Shown here: in pieces, positions 34,005 to 52,620 of the stretch
How positions within the stretch are numbered: the first letter of the stretch is position 1
Layout: every line of letters begins with the position of its first letter
Assembly (NCBI GenBank): GCA_963841015.1
Contig: CAWJAX010000005.1
Coordinates: 512,001-576,000, forward strand
DNA: 64,000 nucleotides
Direction of reading: 5' to 3'
DNA from: an uncultured Methanoregulaceae archaeon
GTDB lineage: Archaea > Halobacteriota > Methanomicrobia > Methanomicrobiales > Methanospirillaceae
Position numbers and translations under genes: made by a program
Notes under the pieces: generated by a model
Databases searched by the model: none
The model's input: only the letters and a program-made list of their open reading frames with translations
Told to the model about the DNA's origin: nothing

Positions 34005-35697
34005 TTACCTTGACGGTATGATCAGTGAGCGCTCTCCAGCGGGCATGAACTCGCGGATTGCACCCTTCGCGAACTCGCGGCGTGGTTCGGAGAAGTCGAA
34101 CTTGAGCGACGGGTCGGCAAACGTGATCTTCATCAGTGGGGATAGGGTCCATGCATCTCCGCGTGCCGTAGTGGGCAGGCTGCGGCGATTGCTGCGTATT
34201 CTCCCTGGTGGCCGACGTTCATTGCATAGTTCGGGTAGTTCGGTCCACGGAGCTCGCCGAGTACATCCCTCGTCGGGACGGATCGACATGGAGTTTGCGG
34301 AACCGCACTGGTCCTGCAGGTCGTAGCCGAAGAAGCCGAGACGTGACCAGCCTTCCTTGTGCATGAGCATGGACAAGTACCAGCCGTTCAGGCCGGCGTT
34401 GGAGTTTGCAGTTGCCAGTGAACAGGAGATACCTGATGCTGCTGCAAGGACGGAGGCACGCTGGGATCCACCGAAGTGGCTCTCGAGGGCGGTCGGGTAT
34501 GTCTCGTACTGCTCCATACCGTAGAGGTTGACCTCGGTTGCGATGTCGCTGACGACTTCCTGGGTCGACTTTGCCTTGCCGATGCCACCGTGTTTCTTCT
34601 TGATGTAGTCAATACCGTAGTAGGTGTAGTCATCGAGGATGTTGTCGGTGTATGCAGCGGTTGCATACTGGGTGAAACCGACACCACCGGACATGTAGGA
34701 TCCGAGCCAGATCTGGTCGAACAGCATGGTACCTGCACCGACGACTTCAAGAGATTGCCTTGACGGGGTCGTTGGGGTACTTGCGGTCTGCCTGGATCAT
34801 GTCGCAGAAGTGTCCGAACTTGATGCCACCTGGCTCGTTCGGGCCACGGGCACGGCGGGCGGGCAGGATATCTGCCATCTGGATAACACCGGCGTGCTTT
34901 GCGGCGAATGCGAGGTCAGCGACTGCTGCCTCACCGGCGCACATCTTGTACGCTCCGATGAAGGACATACCGATCTGCATTGCAGACCAGCGGGAGGTGG
35001 TTCCACCATCGCATGTCCTGCTGACGGTTGTGGGGATGTGCACTGCCTGCCACATCGACTTGCCGACCGCTGCCTTGAGTGCGGCTGCCTGCTTTGCCGG
35101 GAAGAGTTTGTCGACGTTGAGCACGAACTGGGGCTCGAGGTCGTCTGCCATCTCGTCGTCACCCGTGAAGACCTTGACGTAACAGTCGTCCACGAGTGAC
35201 GGGTGAGTCTCGACCATGTGTTCCTGAACAACGGCTGCACCGGGCATGGCGTGGTTCAGCACGTGGAGGTACTCGTTGATGGTTTCTGGGGTGACTTCCT
35301 TACCGAGACGCTTCTGGAGCGTGCCGTGGGCGAGGTCGAGGCCGACAATGATCGTCCTGCGGATATCATCCCACATCTGCTGCATCGCGGCGTTGTTGAC
35401 AAAGTGCAGGTCATCGCCTTCGACGAAGACGCCCGTTGCGCTGACTTCGTAGGTTGTCAGCTGGCGCTGGCCGAGCGGGATACCGCCGCAGTGGCAGCGC
35501 TTCGGGTCGTACATGGAGATGCCGCGGTCCATCTCGGCCTTCTTACCGGCCTTCATGAACTCGACTTTTCTCGGGGACTGCTCAAGACCCTTGCGCTCAA
35601 AGACCGTGGACATTGCCTGGGGGTCTTCGGCAAACTTTGTCTTCATTGCCTTCAGGAAGAGCTTCTGGGTCCTTTCGATTTTTGCTGCTTTTGCCAT
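34005..35697 (-). CDS. mcrA: Methyl-coenzyme M reductase alpha subunit (three apparent frameshifts near 34750, 34260 and 34170)
   Basis: [49 protein letters not shown]. Confidence 0.97.
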
Positions 35698-49319: not shown

Positions 49320-49583
49320 TTTTTTTCACGCACCAGCTATGATCGATTTCAAAAATCGACTATCAAAAAGTGGTCGAAGAAGATAGATAAATGTTCTGAA
49401 ATAAGCCCATAAAAAAGGGGAATTTATTCAGGATTTTTAATTTTTATAAATATACTCTTGAATCATGTTAATTTAAAAAAATTTACTCAATTCGCCATTT
49501 TCCATGCGCTGTATAAACCGGATTAAATTAGAAAATTTATTCAATAAACATCATTGTACCTTTGTAGTACCGGAGGTTATCAA

Positions 49584-50468
49584 ATGGAAATCAACGGAGT
49601 TACTATTGATAATACGTACGCAGAGGCATTCCCGACCTGGGTCTGCCGTGTAATCATCACTGCGGTGACGAAGGAATGGGCAGAGAAAGCAGCAACGGAA
49701 GCAACCGGATTTGCAACATCGTCTATTGGCTGCCCATGCGAGGCAGGAATTGAAGGATTTGTGCCGGCAAGTGAGACTCCCGATGGAAGACCGGGTGTTG
49801 CCATCCTGATCTGTGCCAGCAAGAAGAAACTCAAGGAACAGGTCGTGGAACGCCTTGCAGAATGTGTCCTCACTGCACCTACCACAGCAGTTTTTAACGG
49901 GATCACCAATGCAGAGGAAAAAATCCCGGTCAAGCTTCACTTCTTTGGTGATGGCTACGAATACCAGAAAGAGGTAGGCGGGAGAAAGTGCTGGGCTATT
50001 CCCATTATGCAGGGTGAATACGTTGGCGAAGAGGAGTTTGGCATCGTCAAGGGTGTTGCCGGCGGAAACTTCTTTGTGATGGGTGAGAACCAGATGGCAG
50101 CTCTCATGGGAGCAAAAGCTGCAGTTGACGCGATTGACAGGGTGCCGGGCACTATCACGAGTTTCCCGGGTGGTATTGTCGGGAGCGGTTCAAAAGTGGG
50201 CAGCCTGAAATACAAGTTCATGATTGCTTCGACCAATGAGAAGTACTGTCCGACACTCCGGGAAAAAGTTGCTGACACCAAGGTCCCGGCTGGAATCAAG
50301 GCAGTCTATGAGATTGTTATTGACGGGATTGATGAGAAGTCTGTTGCAGCGGCAATGGGAGCCGGTGTCAGGGCAGCTGTCATGGTTCCGGGCGTGAAGT
50401 TCATCTCTGCTGGAAACTTTGGCGGTACTCTTGGACCATTTAAGATTGATCTGCACAAAGTGCTCTGA
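49584..50468 (+). CDS. ftr: Formylmethanofuran:H4MPT formyltransferase
   Basis: MEINGV.I..TYAEAF, TPDGRPG, GVAGGN, SAGNFGG.LG. Confidence 0.97.
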   Translation: MEINGVTIDNTYAEAFPTWVCRVIITAVTKEWAEKAATEATGFATSSIGCPCEAGIEGFVPASETPDGRPGVAILICASKKKLKEQVVERLAECVLTAPTTAVFNGITNAEEKIPVKLHFFGDGYEYQKEVGGRKCWAIPIMQGEYVGEEEFGIVKGVAGGNFFVMGENQMAALMGAKAAVDAIDRVPGTITSFPGGIVGSGSKVGSLKYKFMIASTNEKYCPTLREKVADTKVPAGIKAVYEIVIDGIDEKSVAAAMGAGVRAAVMVPGVKFISAGNFGGTLGPFKIDLHKVL

Positions 50469-50772
50469 AATTTTCTCTTTTTTTAATTTATTGCGATCAC
50501 ATCGATCGTTATTTATATTTTTATTGCCGATTCTTTTGTTAACGAAATTTTCGGCGATAACATGATCACCCTGACACACAAGGACGTGAATCCCCGATTC
50601 CGACCTCTTTTCAGCCCGATCTTTCGCCTGGGGGTTGGCGGATTCAATGGTACCTCAGCGATCATCGGACGATGCATTGCCCGAAGCACCAGTACAGCGG
50701 ATATGATGAACCGATTGTGTACCTGGGATGGGGTAATACAGGAAATCAAAGGAATTGAGATGGCTGGACACT

Positions 50773-51669
50773 ATGACGAACATCCCTGAACCGTATGTCA
50801 TACACTACCCGCGGATTGTGGCAGTAGCTGATGAAGCAGGCAGTCATGTGGAGCTCATTGAGTTCTTTGACTGTGTTGGCGGGGCAATGTGGTCAAAGCA
50901 CCACTATGCCCAAAGCCCGGTGGTAAAAAATGTCCGCTGTGTTGGCCAGACCATGCGGTACCTCTTAACCACGGGTACCGTGGACCTTGCTCTTGAAGGA
51001 TCCAGGTTTCCGGCCGGTATCTCCTCGTGCATTGTCGAAAAATCTGAGATCGCTGTCACCTACATCGGAATGGGTGGGGGCGGGGTAGGTGCAGCAGCAT
51101 GCCGTTCTGATGCAGCTGGTGTCCTGCGGAGCAGGTGCGATGAATCCGGGGGTGGGAAAGTTGCCGGTTCCACGATATGGCTGCCCCGCATGCAGCGGGT
51201 TCTCATTGGTGTCGATGATACTGATACCCCTGACGAGGGAGCCACGTGGACGCTTGTCCATAATATTGCAAAAGCGGTTGAGGATGAGCATTCGGTATAC
51301 CTCTCGCACACGATAGTCCAGCTCTTCCCGGTGCCGTACCGTACCAAGAACTGTGTGAGTCTTGTGGCAGAGTTCGCGACAACGGATACCAAGGGACTGA
51401 CAGAAAGGTTCCGGCAACTCCTCGAACGGTACACTCTCTCCCAAAAAACGGGGATGGCAGTCTATACCGGGTTTACACTCTCAGAAAAACTGCTTGAATA
51501 CGGGCGAAATGTCAAACGGGGAGAGATTAAACCGGGAGTGCTCGGAGGCCTGGATGACAAAAACCTGCAGATAATACTGGATGGCAGGGGCATAATCGGG
51601 GCGGTTGCCGCCATCCCTTTTTACACCCGGTACGAGGAGGCGCTGGAATTATGCAGTGGACGGACCTGA
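50773..51669 (+). CDS. mmp11: Methanogenesis marker protein 11 (C-terminal half resembles the TiaS IGxDDTD domain)
   Basis: PY...Y..I, C.GG..W..HHY, GMGGGGVGA..CR, IGVDDTD, KNC, GRGIIGAVAA. Confidence 0.8.
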   Translation: MTNIPEPYVIHYPRIVAVADEAGSHVELIEFFDCVGGAMWSKHHYAQSPVVKNVRCVGQTMRYLLTTGTVDLALEGSRFPAGISSCIVEKSEIAVTYIGMGGGGVGAAACRSDAAGVLRSRCDESGGGKVAGSTIWLPRMQRVLIGVDDTDTPDEGATWTLVHNIAKAVEDEHSVYLSHTIVQLFPVPYRTKNCVSLVAEFATTDTKGLTERFRQLLERYTLSQKTGMAVYTGFTLSEKLLEYGRNVKRGEIKPGVLGGLDDKNLQIILDGRGIIGAVAAIPFYTRYEEALELCSGRT

Positions 51670-52620
51670 AAGCCCGGCTTCTGGCGGTTGGTCAGGCACA
51701 CCTGACCGGTGAACCGGCAGAAAACTATATCGCCCGTTCAGCTGCAGGTACCCGGTGCCGGTGGCAGCGGTGCAGTTTTTTTTGCCATGGGAAGTCACCG
51801 GGTCAAGCTTGCGCTCAGCCCGGTAAGCAGTATCGAGATTGCACACCGTGGCAACGGAACTGCCGATCTGTTCTTTGAAGGACAGAAAATCTCCGGACAC
51901 CTGCTGGAACCCGGGTTCCATTGCCCTGATCAGGCTTTTATCACCGTGACCGGCAGCTGCATTTTTTCCTGCAGCTATTGTTCCGTCCCCCGGATCGGGG
52001 GAAAACGCAAGACCATCAAAGAGATCACAGCGATGGTGGAATCGGTACGTGACCATATCCATGCAATCTCCATAACAAGCGGGGTCCTCACGAGCATTGA
52101 AGAAGAAGAGGCCTATGTTCTTGAAGTGGTAAAACACCTCGCTTCGTTTAACCTGCCTGTTGGTGTCTCCATCTACCCGACCACAACGACACCCGACCGG
52201 TTAAAGGAGCTGGGCGTGGCTGAGGTGAAATTCAATCTCGAAGCGGCAACCCCGGAACTGTTTTCTCAGATGTGCCCGGGTCTGGATTACGGGGTACTCT
52301 GGCAGGTACTGGATCGCTCGGTGAAGCTGTTCGGGAAAAACCGTGTCTTTTCCAATGTCATCATAGGCCTGGGGGAGACTGATGCGGAGCTGGAAACCTG
52401 TATCCAGAAGCTGACAGCGCTCGGGGTGATTCCGGTTCTGCGCCCACTCAATCCGGTAGCCGGGCTTGCAGGCTCACCACGGCCATCTGCACAACGGCTG
52501 ATGAAAATCTTTGCCATACATGCACGGGCTCTTGACCAGGCTGGTCTTGATCCAAAACTTGCAGTTACGATGTGCACGAATTGTGCAGGTTGTGATCTCG
52601 TGCCGGGGAGGGACCAATGA
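51651..52620 (+). CDS. Radical SAM protein, BioB/LipA-like (frameshift near 51750)
   Basis: SAAG-PGAGG after joining the frames, HCP, CIFSCSYC, KFNLE, IIGLGETD, C-terminal MCTNCAGCD. Confidence 0.8.

Follow-up and report, generated by a model that had tools for sequence, protein, structure and literature searches.

The question raised by this locus is which reaction is catalysed by methanogenesis marker protein 11 (Mmp11), whose gene stands directly in front of genes for the synthesis of CoB. [quoted passage not shown] To our knowledge, none of the enzymes that act after 2-oxosuberate in its synthesis has been assigned. The original prediction took Mmp11 to be restricted to methanogens and made it a candidate ATP-dependent ligase or kinase of this pathway.

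In the window, which is the whole stretch of 64,000 nucleotides that was analysed, ftr is followed by a 304-bp AT-rich spacer and then by eight genes on the same strand, with overlapping or abutting ends, in the order Mmp11, radical SAM enzyme, TPP/FeS enzyme, aksA, aksD, aksE, the XcbA-like DUF7714 protein and aksF (Table 1). Mmp11 is the first of these eight tightly packed genes, and it is therefore correct to say that it heads the aks operon. Upstream of it, the TATA-like stretch TTATTTATATTTTTATT is, judged from its letters, a possible archaeal promoter. No Rfam family was found in the Mmp11 leader (50400-50850), and this leader folds no better than its shuffles (z +0.86).

Table 1. Features of the Mmp11 operon, with positions in the window.
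Feature	Position	Strand	Basis or remark
AT-rich TATA-like stretch	50509..50525	+	In the ftr-Mmp11 spacer, read from sequence
Mmp11 (methanogenesis marker protein 11)	50773..51669	+	298 aa, intact; TIGR03280 match
Family-specific N-terminal domain, residues 1-139	50773..51189	+	Glycine-rich loops G99-x-GGGGVG106 and G126-G128
TiaS-type kinase (TCKD) and ferredoxin-like domain, residues 140-298	51190..51669	+	Structure, Foldseek, profile and hhalign matches
DDTD motif of Mmp11	51214-51225	+	Aligned with TiaS
Thr158 codon of Mmp11	51244-51246	+	Invariant, aligned with TiaS Thr
Radical SAM enzyme (LipS2 / variant-rSAM / MSMEG_0568-like), C-terminal CxxCxxC	51651..52620	+	Radical_SAM E 9.1e-15
Short TPP enzyme, related to indolepyruvate:ferredoxin oxidoreductase alpha	52617..53888	+	TPP_enzyme_C E 4.5e-10
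aksA (homocitrate synthase family)	53869..54997	+	HMGL-like domain in two pieces, profile 2-62 and 62-260
aksD (homoaconitase large subunit family)	54997..56211	+	NF001614 485 bits; HacA_Meth 413 bits, under the 550 cut-off
aksE (homoaconitase small subunit)	56208..56678	+	Assigned from position and orthologues; matched in 10/10 Methanomicrobiales loci
DUF7714 protein, distantly XcbA-like	56675..57475	+	PF24830 303 bits
aksF (homoisocitrate dehydrogenase family)	57460..58437	+	Assigned from position and orthologues in Methanomicrobiales loci

The radical SAM gene overlaps the stop of Mmp11 by 19 nt. A single surplus base at 51749, which is missing from the contigs of three runs, interrupts its frame, and aksA is likewise split over two frames near 54072-54074, where the contigs of other runs are one base shorter; within the Mmp11 gene, the contigs of other runs show no unbalanced indel. 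The NCBIfam matches of the radical SAM enzyme are weak (67-68 bits; LipS2 reaches 68 bits against a cut-off of 270), and the alignment of its orthologues contains invariant Cys residues. The TPP enzyme scores 156 bits against IOR_alpha, far under the cut-off of 650.9, and has four invariant Cys (270, 273, 295 and 412), making it a candidate 2-oxosuberate decarboxylase.

The frame of Mmp11 runs from 50755 to 51669, and its start ATG at 50773 gives a protein of 298 residues, which is the length of most close homologues. In the NCBIfam search it matches TIGR03280 (methan_mark_11) with 344.5 bits, above the cut-off of 255.8, practically end to end (profile positions 1-291 of 292). The protein on which the original prediction was built is, therefore, a real, full-length Mmp11. 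At E<=0.01 this is the sole NCBIfam model matched; the TiaS model NF040849 is absent from the matches, and Mmp11 is not a TiaS equivalog by that measure. It nests within the Methanomicrobiales Mmp11 clade in a quick tree (SH-aLRT 100). With an alignment of 13 rows as query, at least 80 related loci were found, and among the matches listed all are from Methanoregula or related Methanomicrobiales MAGs. A literature search by the protein's names found no paper naming Mmp11. The accessible part of the supplement of PMC12068725 lists MA1981 as a 'DUF1743 domain-containing protein', which could be Mmp11 or TiaS. Contigs from two RNA libraries (runs X15 and X16) match parts of the Mmp11 gene; these matches were not counted as expression, because contigs cannot show transcription and are only 90-99% alike.

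The AlphaFold2 model of Mmp11 (pLDDT 92.7, pTM 0.91) relates its C-terminal part to TiaS. Pfam detects TiaS_TCKD (E 5.4e-12) and TiaS_FLD (E 1.4e-6), that is, both the kinase and the ferredoxin-like domain of TiaS, and no domain beyond these two. The comparison with TiaS that had been called for was carried out: residues 140-298 superimpose on 3amt_A with Z 19.9 and an rmsd of 2.1 Å over 152 residues (VIA-align), and Foldseek gives E 3.9e-8 for the same structure. At the sequence level the two proteins are about 20% identical; a single-sequence search of the PDB sequences with Mmp11 returned nothing (best E 0.79), and only the search with its profile reached TiaS (3u02 1.8e-25, 3amt 1.2e-16). 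The fold is common to the TiaS structures 3amt, 3amu, 3au7, 4rvz and 5xob and to 3u02 from P. furiosus. The motifs named in the original prediction, IGVDDTD (residues 145-151), TKNC (191-194) and GRGIIGA (271-277), are all present, conserved in the family and aligned with TiaS; DDTD, GAT158, KT-x-N and G-x-G-x-IGA are kept across the Mmp11 clades. Thr158 is invariant in Mmp11 and is aligned by hhalign with Thr16 of the TiaS encoded in the same genome, which we take to be the equivalent of the autophosphorylated Thr18 of A. fulgidus TiaS. TiaS phosphorylates an oxygen (at C2 of cytidine), which is followed by the attack of an amine, and it phosphorylates a Thr. Given the shared fold and motifs and the aligned Thr, an ATP-driven phosphorylation of oxygen would be expected of Mmp11.

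TiaS holds its tRNA by means of an OB fold and a zinc ribbon. Neither was found in Mmp11 by Pfam or by hhalign against TiaS: the hhalign match (probability 98) ends at residue 143 of the 407 of the genome's own TiaS-like protein, and Mmp11 stops about 16 residues past the part aligned with residues 1-143, shortly after the ferredoxin-like domain, bearing out the claim that it lacks the tRNA-binding parts. Instead, Mmp11 has a glycine-rich N-terminal domain of 139 residues that is unique to its family, and this two-part architecture of about 300 residues aligns with 44 family members. The TiaS-like protein of this genome is encoded at a separate locus and scores 396 bits over the full NF040849 model, under the cut-off of 600. 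With neither OB fold nor zinc ribbon, and in a genome that encodes a full-length TiaS elsewhere, Mmp11 is not a tRNA enzyme by its architecture. The shared TCKD and ferredoxin-like fold would also suit a TiaS-like enzyme that modifies RNA and finds it via the novel N-terminal domain; this is extremely unlikely given the missing domains and the genuine TiaS elsewhere, and no recurring RNA-related gene was found among the neighbours of Mmp11 in the loci examined. The gene context of Mmp11 is metabolic, versus translational for TiaS. Mmp11 would thus be a TiaS-type (TCKD) ATP-dependent phosphotransferase that acts on a small molecule rather than on tRNA.

The N-terminal domain had been described as Gly-rich with Cys and His residues. 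The first half of this description stands, with the loops G99-x-GGGGVG and GGG126-128 kept in all 22 of the Mmp11-proper rows examined, but conservation does not extend to its Cys and His residues (alignments A1 and A2 contain no invariant Cys in this domain). Modelled alone, the domain reaches a pLDDT of 91.2. The best match in a fold search of solved structures has Z 5.5, which is in the noise range (Z>=5 in 1 of 48,161 chains), and an Atlas feature search returned only archaeal clusters that bear TiaS_TCKD (scores 0.79 and 0.76). The domain has no clear solved relative, and neither search shows its fold to be new.

The gene neighbourhood was compared across 34 loci, hand-picked at one to few per family from a single phylum-level sample of 301 related genomes, in which relatives are not independent (f-numbers denote families of this sample, and G and L numbers its genomes and loci). 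Mmp11 abuts the radical SAM gene, the TPP gene or both in 29 of the 34 loci, and has neither beside it in the other 5. The order Mmp11, radical SAM, TPP, aksA, aksD, aksE and aksF on one strand is found in all ten Methanomicrobiales loci examined; nine of them have DUF7714 inserted between aksE and aksF, whereas in L087 it lies upstream of Mmp11 in divergent orientation. The TPP gene was called there by adjacency, as its short Methanomicrobiales form and ordinary IorA both score about 300 bits on the TPP profile. At least five families have the aks-linked TPP gene directly next to Mmp11, among them f7 (8/8 loci), f23 (2/2), f29 (1/1) and f14, and orthologues of the TPP gene adjoin Mmp11 or aksA in other families. 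Families f10 and f14 contain clusters of TPP, aksA/D/E/F and DUF7714, and f7 has the arrangement aksE-DUF7714-aksF. Mmp11 thus clusters with aksADEF and with the candidate genes of the late steps. These conserved neighbours make Mmp11 a candidate for a late step, and by its gene context Mmp11 is slightly more likely than not to have a part in late CoB synthesis.

DUF7714 follows the same pattern. It is found in 130 of the 301 genomes, as a single copy in 129 (G099 has two matches), and comprises every sampled genome of f1-f7, f10, f14, f23, f27 and f29, plus G244, and no other family; McrA is present in most genomes of the families that bear it. XcbA of Xanthobacter autotrophicus is described, in the consulted text of PMC9457059, as a [2Fe-2S] protein that converts sulfoethanethioaldehyde to CoM. 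The DUF7714 protein matches the XcbA family model NF052538 over most of its length (E 4.5e-16), but its 59 bits are under the 150-bit cut-off, and its gene lies among aks genes in archaea, versus the CoM cluster for XcbA. By analogy, it is a candidate thioaldehyde reductase.

Some members of the Mmp11 family are paralogues with the same two-domain architecture and TCKD motifs, which differ in their scores on TIGR03280 (103-234 bits, under the cut-off), in forming separate clades in the quick tree and in their neighbours. A tandem paralogue lies upstream of Mmp11 in 7 of the 10 Methanomicrobiales loci; the window's genome has no tandem paralogue, and carries one linked to homoserine dehydrogenase (L002) on another contig. 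Apart from the tandem paralogue, no gene of the operon other than Mmp11 encodes a recognisable ATP-using enzyme. White is said to have found in 1994 that the last two steps of CoB synthesis depend on ATP, and two paralogues would fit two such steps. In line with the original prediction, Mmp11 may be the amide synthetase and/or kinase of CoB, which would make the acyl phosphate of 7-mercaptoheptanoate for attack by the amine of L-threonine, and/or phosphorylate the Thr hydroxyl of the product. Such reactions would mirror both activities of TiaS, whose fold, motifs and aligned Thr are found in Mmp11. There are also weak links to threonine: the gene order hom-rSAM-Mmp11 in G057, the paralogue after homoserine dehydrogenase in the window's genome, and a class I/II aminotransferase, presumably of the cobD type, upstream of cbiB, cobS and Mmp11 in L104. 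The paralogue linked to homoserine dehydrogenase was considered as a missing homoserine kinase: no thrB was found over the cut-off, but a split candidate kinase of the TIGR02535 type is present.

The role of CoB amide synthetase and/or kinase is possible but doubtful, since neither an amide nor a phosphate step has a use for the radical SAM enzyme to which Mmp11 is so tightly coupled. All 40 genomes of f7 have only two or three TIGR03280 matches (one at the Mmp11 level, the rest read as TiaS-level) and none with a paralogue-level score, so that in f7 the two steps would have to fall to a single enzyme, or a second one would be unaccounted for. In its fullest form, in which Mmp11 is a CoB synthetase, a TiaS-derived dual kinase that forms the acyl phosphate, couples Thr and phosphorylates the Thr hydroxyl while its radical SAM, TPP/FeS and XcbA-like neighbours supply the thiol acid, it is rather unlikely; if it were true, the entire CoB pathway would be encoded in the Methanomicrobiales operon of eight or nine genes.

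The distribution of Mmp11 bears on this point. It was found over the cut-off in 146 of the 301 genomes, of which 130 have McrA and 16 have no McrA match. Ten of these 16 belong to lineages without McrA in any sampled genome (eight in f8, plus G057 and G211). Conversely, canonical Mmp11 was not found in 36 McrA-positive genomes (27 in f15, four in f12, two each in f20 and f28 and one in f31). In this sample, Mmp11 is thus not simply present with MCR and absent elsewhere, and to call it methanogen-restricted was too strong. The 36 genomes should need the same two steps, and the ten others contain Mmp11 in lineages without McrA; both argue against the amide synthetase and kinase, and likewise against the sulfur step proposed below. 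As an ATP-dependent enzyme of CoB synthesis, Mmp11 is consistent with its TiaS-type kinase fold, motifs and Thr158 and with its gene context, whereas these two groups of genomes weigh against a universal ligase or kinase role.

The radical SAM enzyme is the most conserved partner of Mmp11. Of the 34 chosen loci, 17 have its gene directly beside Mmp11, and in our own pairing of coordinates it lies within about 100 bp of Mmp11 in 64 of 82 genomes. Both genes are present in the ten Mmp11-positive genomes of McrA-negative lineages, and among the 49 genomes of f8 the 14 with one gene are exactly those with the other. Among the Mmp11 genomes of McrA-negative lineages, five are without DUF7714 and five are without MMP16 (the CoM synthase) over the cut-off; in f8, MMP16 over the cut-off was found in 0/5 Mmp11-positive and 0/5 Mmp11-negative genomes. 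Since the pair occurs in these ten genomes, some of them lacking DUF7714 or MMP16, its tie to CoB is not universal. Mmp11 and the radical SAM enzyme might, then, form a general module for another small, probably sulfur-containing, metabolite or cofactor in methanogens and some non-methanogenic archaea, with the place in the aks operon reflecting co-regulation. This would suit the pair's divergence from a thioredoxin-reductase-like flavoprotein gene in both McrA-negative f8 loci examined, and the Mmp4/MtxX gene (PTA fold) that abuts Mmp11 or its paralogue in 2/34 loci. It is unlikely in view of the adjacency of Mmp11 and the TPP gene across families, the conserved Methanomicrobiales operon and the McrA found in most Mmp11-positive genomes, and no result points to an alternative product.

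Other neighbours point towards methyl-coenzyme M reductase itself. Both f10 loci contain a ycaO-tfuA-hycI-like-Mmp11 operon, and in a single f8 locus ycaO-tfuA is a neighbour of rSAM-Mmp11. One f16 locus has mcrBDG 850 bp downstream of Mmp11. Where coordinates were compared among Methanomicrobiales genomes, about 12-25 kb separate the Mmp11 cluster from mcrA. According to the part of PMC5589413 consulted, ycaO-tfuA install the thioglycine of McrA. A role of Mmp11 and the radical SAM enzyme in the maturation or post-translational modification of this reductase is nevertheless very unlikely, given the Mmp11 of McrA-negative lineages and the McrA-positive genomes in which it was not found, and because the genes found nearest to Mmp11, and most often, are TPP and aks rather than mcr.

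A link to sulfur chemistry is suggested by the genes that surround the radical SAM enzyme. In 14 loci of families without Mmp11, it abuts an L-ASST-type HcyBio+CBS gene in six and a TtuA-like PP-loop ATPase in two, and ThiI or Thi4 stands beside it in 2 of 6 further loci of the survey. In several lineages, genes for YcaO/TfuA or TtuA/ThiI-type enzymes adjoin Mmp11 or its radical SAM gene; the folds of these enzymes are unrelated to that of Mmp11 and no homology was detected, so that the analogy is functional only. In these enzymes ATP activates a carbonyl oxygen, which is then replaced by sulfur. The fact that the radical SAM enzyme is found beside enzymes that exchange sulfur for a carbonyl oxygen where Mmp11 is missing, together with the XcbA-like gene of the operon, points at least as much to a thiol-forming step as to an amide or phosphate step. 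Because L-ASST- or MMP16-type enzymes can thiolate aldehydes without ATP, the thiolation step does not obviously call for a kinase. The likeness of the radical SAM enzyme to sulfur-inserting families, as far as its sequence goes, is also weak, which counts against a sulfur step. The match of DUF7714 to XcbA, being under the cut-off, counts against it too, as do the other contexts of Mmp11, namely the f16 locus with mcrBDG and the five loci with neither the radical SAM nor the TPP gene beside it. In the part of PMC12068725 (2025) that was consulted, the pathway to the CoB thiol is described as still unknown, and as possibly requiring MMP16 and/or L-ASST.

It is tentatively proposed, with some doubt, that Mmp11 provides the ATP-driven activation of an oxygen for the incorporation of sulfur during CoB synthesis, together with its radical SAM partner; we lean slightly towards this step over the amide ligase or Thr kinase. 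For Mmp11 we infer the substrate, the step and the link to sulfur as follows. The aks enzymes lead to 2-oxosuberate, which is the established part of the pathway. The TPP/FeS enzyme would remove C1 from 2-oxosuberate to give a C7 aldehyde acid, of which Mmp11, working late in CoB synthesis with the adjacent radical SAM/FeS enzyme, would phosphorylate a carbonyl-type oxygen with ATP, in the way that TiaS acts on C2 of cytidine. A sulfur nucleophile supplied via the radical SAM partner would then displace the phosphorylated oxygen, and the thioaldehyde so formed may, by analogy with XcbA, be reduced by the XcbA-like DUF7714 protein, which would yield the thiol of 7-mercaptoheptanoate.

The conserved gene set provides four concrete candidates for late CoB synthesis, namely Mmp11, the radical SAM enzyme, the TPP/FeS enzyme and DUF7714, which, if confirmed, would complete the textbook pathway of this cofactor. 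Confirmation would also reveal a second use, on a small molecule, of the unusual kinase fold of TiaS, and would add methanogen-specific enzymes to the possible targets for the mitigation of methane.

The methanogenesis marker protein 11 (Mmp11) of the window matches the NCBIfam model TIGR03280 from end to end with 344.5 bits (cut-off 255.8 bits), and the only Pfam domains found in it are TiaS_TCKD (E 5.4e-12) and TiaS_FLD (E 1.4e-6), TiaS being the tRNA(Ile2) 2-agmatinylcytidine synthetase. Its nearest database relatives are likewise 298 residues long, share 80-93% identity with it and come from Methanoregula-type metagenome bins; JGI labels them 'methanogenesis imperfect marker protein 11'. 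The best 80 genomic loci all belong to Methanoregula or Methanomicrobiales MAGs, and the family is small, with 157 clusters (50% identity, E at most 1e-3) among 1.84 billion representatives. The searched literature, which excludes subscription-journal papers and bioRxiv supplements, names neither methanogenesis marker protein 11 nor TIGR03280, and its accessible parts yielded no link between TiaS and a methanogenesis marker and no enzyme assigned to a late step of coenzyme B (CoB) synthesis.

The structure prediction and Foldseek comparison with TiaS proposed with the original prediction were run. The AlphaFold2 model of the whole protein, built on 45 aligned sequences, has a pLDDT of 92.7 and a pTM of 0.91, and its residues 140-298 match TiaS (3amt_A, E 3.9e-8), with TiaS entries accounting for 9/9 Foldseek hits at E of at most 0.001. 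By VIA-align these residues superpose on TiaS with Z 19.9 and an rmsd of 2.1 Å over 152 residues, the first unrelated structure following at only Z 6.8. A PDB search with the family profile returned TiaS chains at 1e-16 to 2e-25, and hhalign paired Mmp11 143-282 with residues 1-143 of TiaS from the same genome at 98% probability. The Mmp11 and TiaS families share the motifs IG(V/I)DDTD, (K/R)T-x-N and G-x-G-x-IGA as well as the Thr in GAT158. Given that these ATP-site motifs are conserved, the objection that Mmp11 might lack an ATP site does not apply, as far as the sequence tells. Thr158, invariant in the 45-sequence alignment, is matched by Thr16 in the local TiaS; this Thr16 presumably corresponds to the autophosphorylated Thr18 of A. 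fulgidus TiaS.

Modelled separately, the N-terminal domain (residues 1-139) reached a pLDDT of 91.2; the fold search, with a best score of Z 5.5, gave no convincing match among solved structures, and the Atlas search returned only archaeal clusters bearing TiaS_TCKD. This domain had been described as Gly-rich with Cys/His residues. The glycine loops stand, given that all 22 of the Mmp11-proper rows examined keep G-x-GGGGVG together with a second GG(G) motif, while the Cys/His residues are not conserved in the alignments.

The same genome encodes a true TiaS of 407 residues, whose Cys-rich C-terminal region is consistent with a zinc ribbon. It also carries, on another contig (C3), a 321-residue Mmp11 paralogue (TIGR03280, 103.7 bits) immediately downstream of the homoserine dehydrogenase gene. 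No thrB match over the cut-off was found in this genome; a split TIGR02535-type candidate homoserine kinase lies on contig C2. A quick tree, supported by SH-aLRT only, separates Mmp11 proper, a tandem-paralogue clade and the paralogues linked to homoserine dehydrogenase, with TiaS outside, and nests the window protein within the Methanomicrobiales Mmp11 clade.

In the window, ftr is followed by an AT-rich spacer of 304 bp, which contains a TATA-like stretch, has no Rfam match and shows nothing unusual on folding. Eight plus-strand genes with abutting or overlapping ends come next, in the order Mmp11, a radical SAM gene (rSAM), a short IorA-related TPP enzyme, aksA, aksD, aksE, the XcbA-like DUF7714 and aksF, the start of rSAM overlapping the stop of Mmp11 by 19 nt. 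One extra base breaks the rSAM frame (51749) and another that of aksA (54072-54074). Both are missing from the contigs of three other public runs (one DNA and two RNA libraries), and the breaks are therefore probably assembly errors or strain-specific frameshifts; Mmp11 itself has no unbalanced indel against contigs of other runs. [quoted passage not shown] In the Mmp11-linked TPP enzymes (alignment A4), C270, C273, C295 and C412 are invariant beside the TPP-binding GD...N motif. These four cysteines suggest a putative FeS cluster of the kind found in 2-oxoacid:ferredoxin oxidoreductases; a simple non-oxidative decarboxylase would not be expected to have one.

Features in the window and in the extracted loci (L-numbers) of other contigs and genomes
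Feature	Position	Strand	Remark
McrA C-terminal domain match	~34338-34718	-	window
ftr	49554-50468		upstream of the spacer
Mmp11	50773-51669	+	298 aa from ATG; open frame from TTG at 50755
rSAM	51651-52620	+	window
TPP enzyme	52617-53888	+	window
DUF7714	56675-57475	+	window
Mmp11 paralogue and homoserine dehydrogenase	L002:1468-2433 and L002:2559-3548	-	same genome, contig C3
Mmp4/MtxX abutting Mmp11	L113:3547-4269	-	genome G057; TIGR03270 over cut-off, PTA-like fold
Mmp4/MtxX abutting Mmp11 paralogue	L117:10439-11299	-	genome G118; TIGR03270 over cut-off, PTA-like fold
Disulfide oxidoreductase	L099:10528-11496	+	family f8
Disulfide oxidoreductase	L100:8284-9327	-	family f8
PLP-dependent and fused TPP enzymes	L100:12128-15275	+	genome G063

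Neighborhoods were compared over 20-kb stretches around Mmp11 in 34 genomes. The families covered (f-numbers) contributed one to a few genomes each, picked non-randomly for large contigs and including related, non-independent ones. All ten Methanomicrobiales loci keep the core Mmp11-rSAM-TPP-aksA-aksD-aksE-aksF; DUF7714 stands between aksE and aksF in nine and divergently upstream of Mmp11 in the other (L087), and in seven a tandem paralogue immediately precedes Mmp11. In f7 (8/8 loci), f23 (2/2) and f29 (1/1), Mmp11 adjoins a TPP enzyme of longer form, which is also near it in one f14 locus; by coordinates, this adjacency holds in every f7 and f23 genome listed in the searches of the 301-genome sample. 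Families f10 and f14 place the TPP gene beside aksA/D/E/F and DUF7714, apart from Mmp11, and one f7 genome has the order aksE-DUF7714-aksF. The rSAM gene adjoins Mmp11 in 17 of the 34 loci (11 families), and rSAM or the TPP gene does so in 29. The five exceptions are two f10 loci with ycaO-tfuA-hycI-like-Mmp11, an f16 locus with mcrBDG 850 bp downstream of Mmp11, an f33 locus with no informative neighbor, and an f15 locus where a paralogue-type gene is next to Mmp4/MtxX. The ycaO-tfuA and mcr contexts would fit a role of Mmp11 in MCR maturation, which we consider very improbable. Mmp4 of the window's genome is on a different contig from Mmp11.

Among 301 genomes sampled from the window's phylum, with completeness of at least 80%, Mmp11 is over the cut-off in 146, McrA (PF02249) is found in 168, the rSAM profile (E at most 1e-40) in 198 and DUF7714 in 130. 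Mmp11 and McrA occur together in 130 genomes. Six of the 16 Mmp11-positive genomes without a McrA match belong to families that otherwise have McrA, so assembly gaps are likely there; the other ten are in lineages with no McrA-bearing sampled member (eight in f8, plus G057 and G211). Conversely, 38 McrA-positive genomes have no Mmp11 over the cut-off; two of these have the gene truncated by a contig end, and the remaining 36 are from f12 (4), f15 (27), f20 (2), f28 (2) and f31 (1). Mmp11 and rSAM occur in the identical 14 of 49 f8 genomes, and rSAM is present in families without Mmp11 (f12 4/4, f15 39/42, f20 2/2, f28 2/2). All sampled members of f1-f7, f10, f14, f23, f27 and f29 have DUF7714, and beyond these families it occurs in G244 alone; of the named controls, M. 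jannaschii and M. acetivorans have Mmp11 over the cut-off, and only M. acetivorans has DUF7714. The presence of the Mmp11-rSAM pair in McrA-negative lineages would suit a broader function of the pair outside CoB synthesis, an unlikely reading in our judgment. In the two McrA-negative f8 loci that were examined, Mmp11-rSAM adjoins, in divergent orientation, a gene for a thioredoxin-reductase-like pyridine nucleotide-disulfide oxidoreductase. About 700 bp downstream of the pair in McrA-negative G063, a PLP-dependent enzyme is encoded together with a TPP enzyme in which, as in sulfopyruvate decarboxylase, the N- and C-terminal TPP domains are present, here fused; the two enzymes resemble the cysteate synthase and ComDE pair of CoM synthesis.

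Fourteen rSAM loci without Mmp11 were examined (f9, f12, f15, f20, f28, f31). [quoted passage not shown] L-ASST-type genes are found beside rSAM in McrA-positive lineages without Mmp11, and in L126 and L127 rSAM is placed between a CofD-like and a TtuA-like gene. Where rSAM is unlinked from Mmp11 (six loci; f7, f14, f16), its neighbors include ThiI once and Thi4 once. In an MMP16 mutant, deletion of L-ASST proved impossible despite supplied CoM, which the authors of that study read as pointing to CoB synthesis, by a pathway they call still unknown (PMC12068725). XcbA has been shown to be a [2Fe-2S] protein catalysing the reduction of sulfoethanethioaldehyde to CoM (PMC9457059). The window DUF7714 matches the XcbA family model with E 4.5e-16, under the model cut-off.

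The chain of association from Mmp11 through the TPP enzyme and aks genes to DUF7714, together with the Mmp11-rSAM pairing, makes it on balance probable that Mmp11 acts somewhere late in methanogen CoB synthesis. The original prediction, that Mmp11 is the CoB amide ligase (forming mercaptoheptanoyl-threonine) or a threonine kinase, fits TiaS chemistry and the ATP need of the last two CoB steps, which White is said to have found in 1994; we regard it as rather doubtful. Slightly favored over it, and itself tentative, is that Mmp11 would use ATP to activate a carbonyl-type oxygen, which is then replaced by sulfur, because the coupling to rSAM is tight and the other rSAM partners are sulfur-for-oxygen enzymes, because an XcbA-like gene is in the operon, and because for thiolation, unlike for the amide and phosphate steps, alternative enzymes are known from lineages that lack Mmp11. 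In Methanomicrobiales, where two paralogues are frequent, oxygen activation and a ligase or kinase activity are not mutually exclusive.
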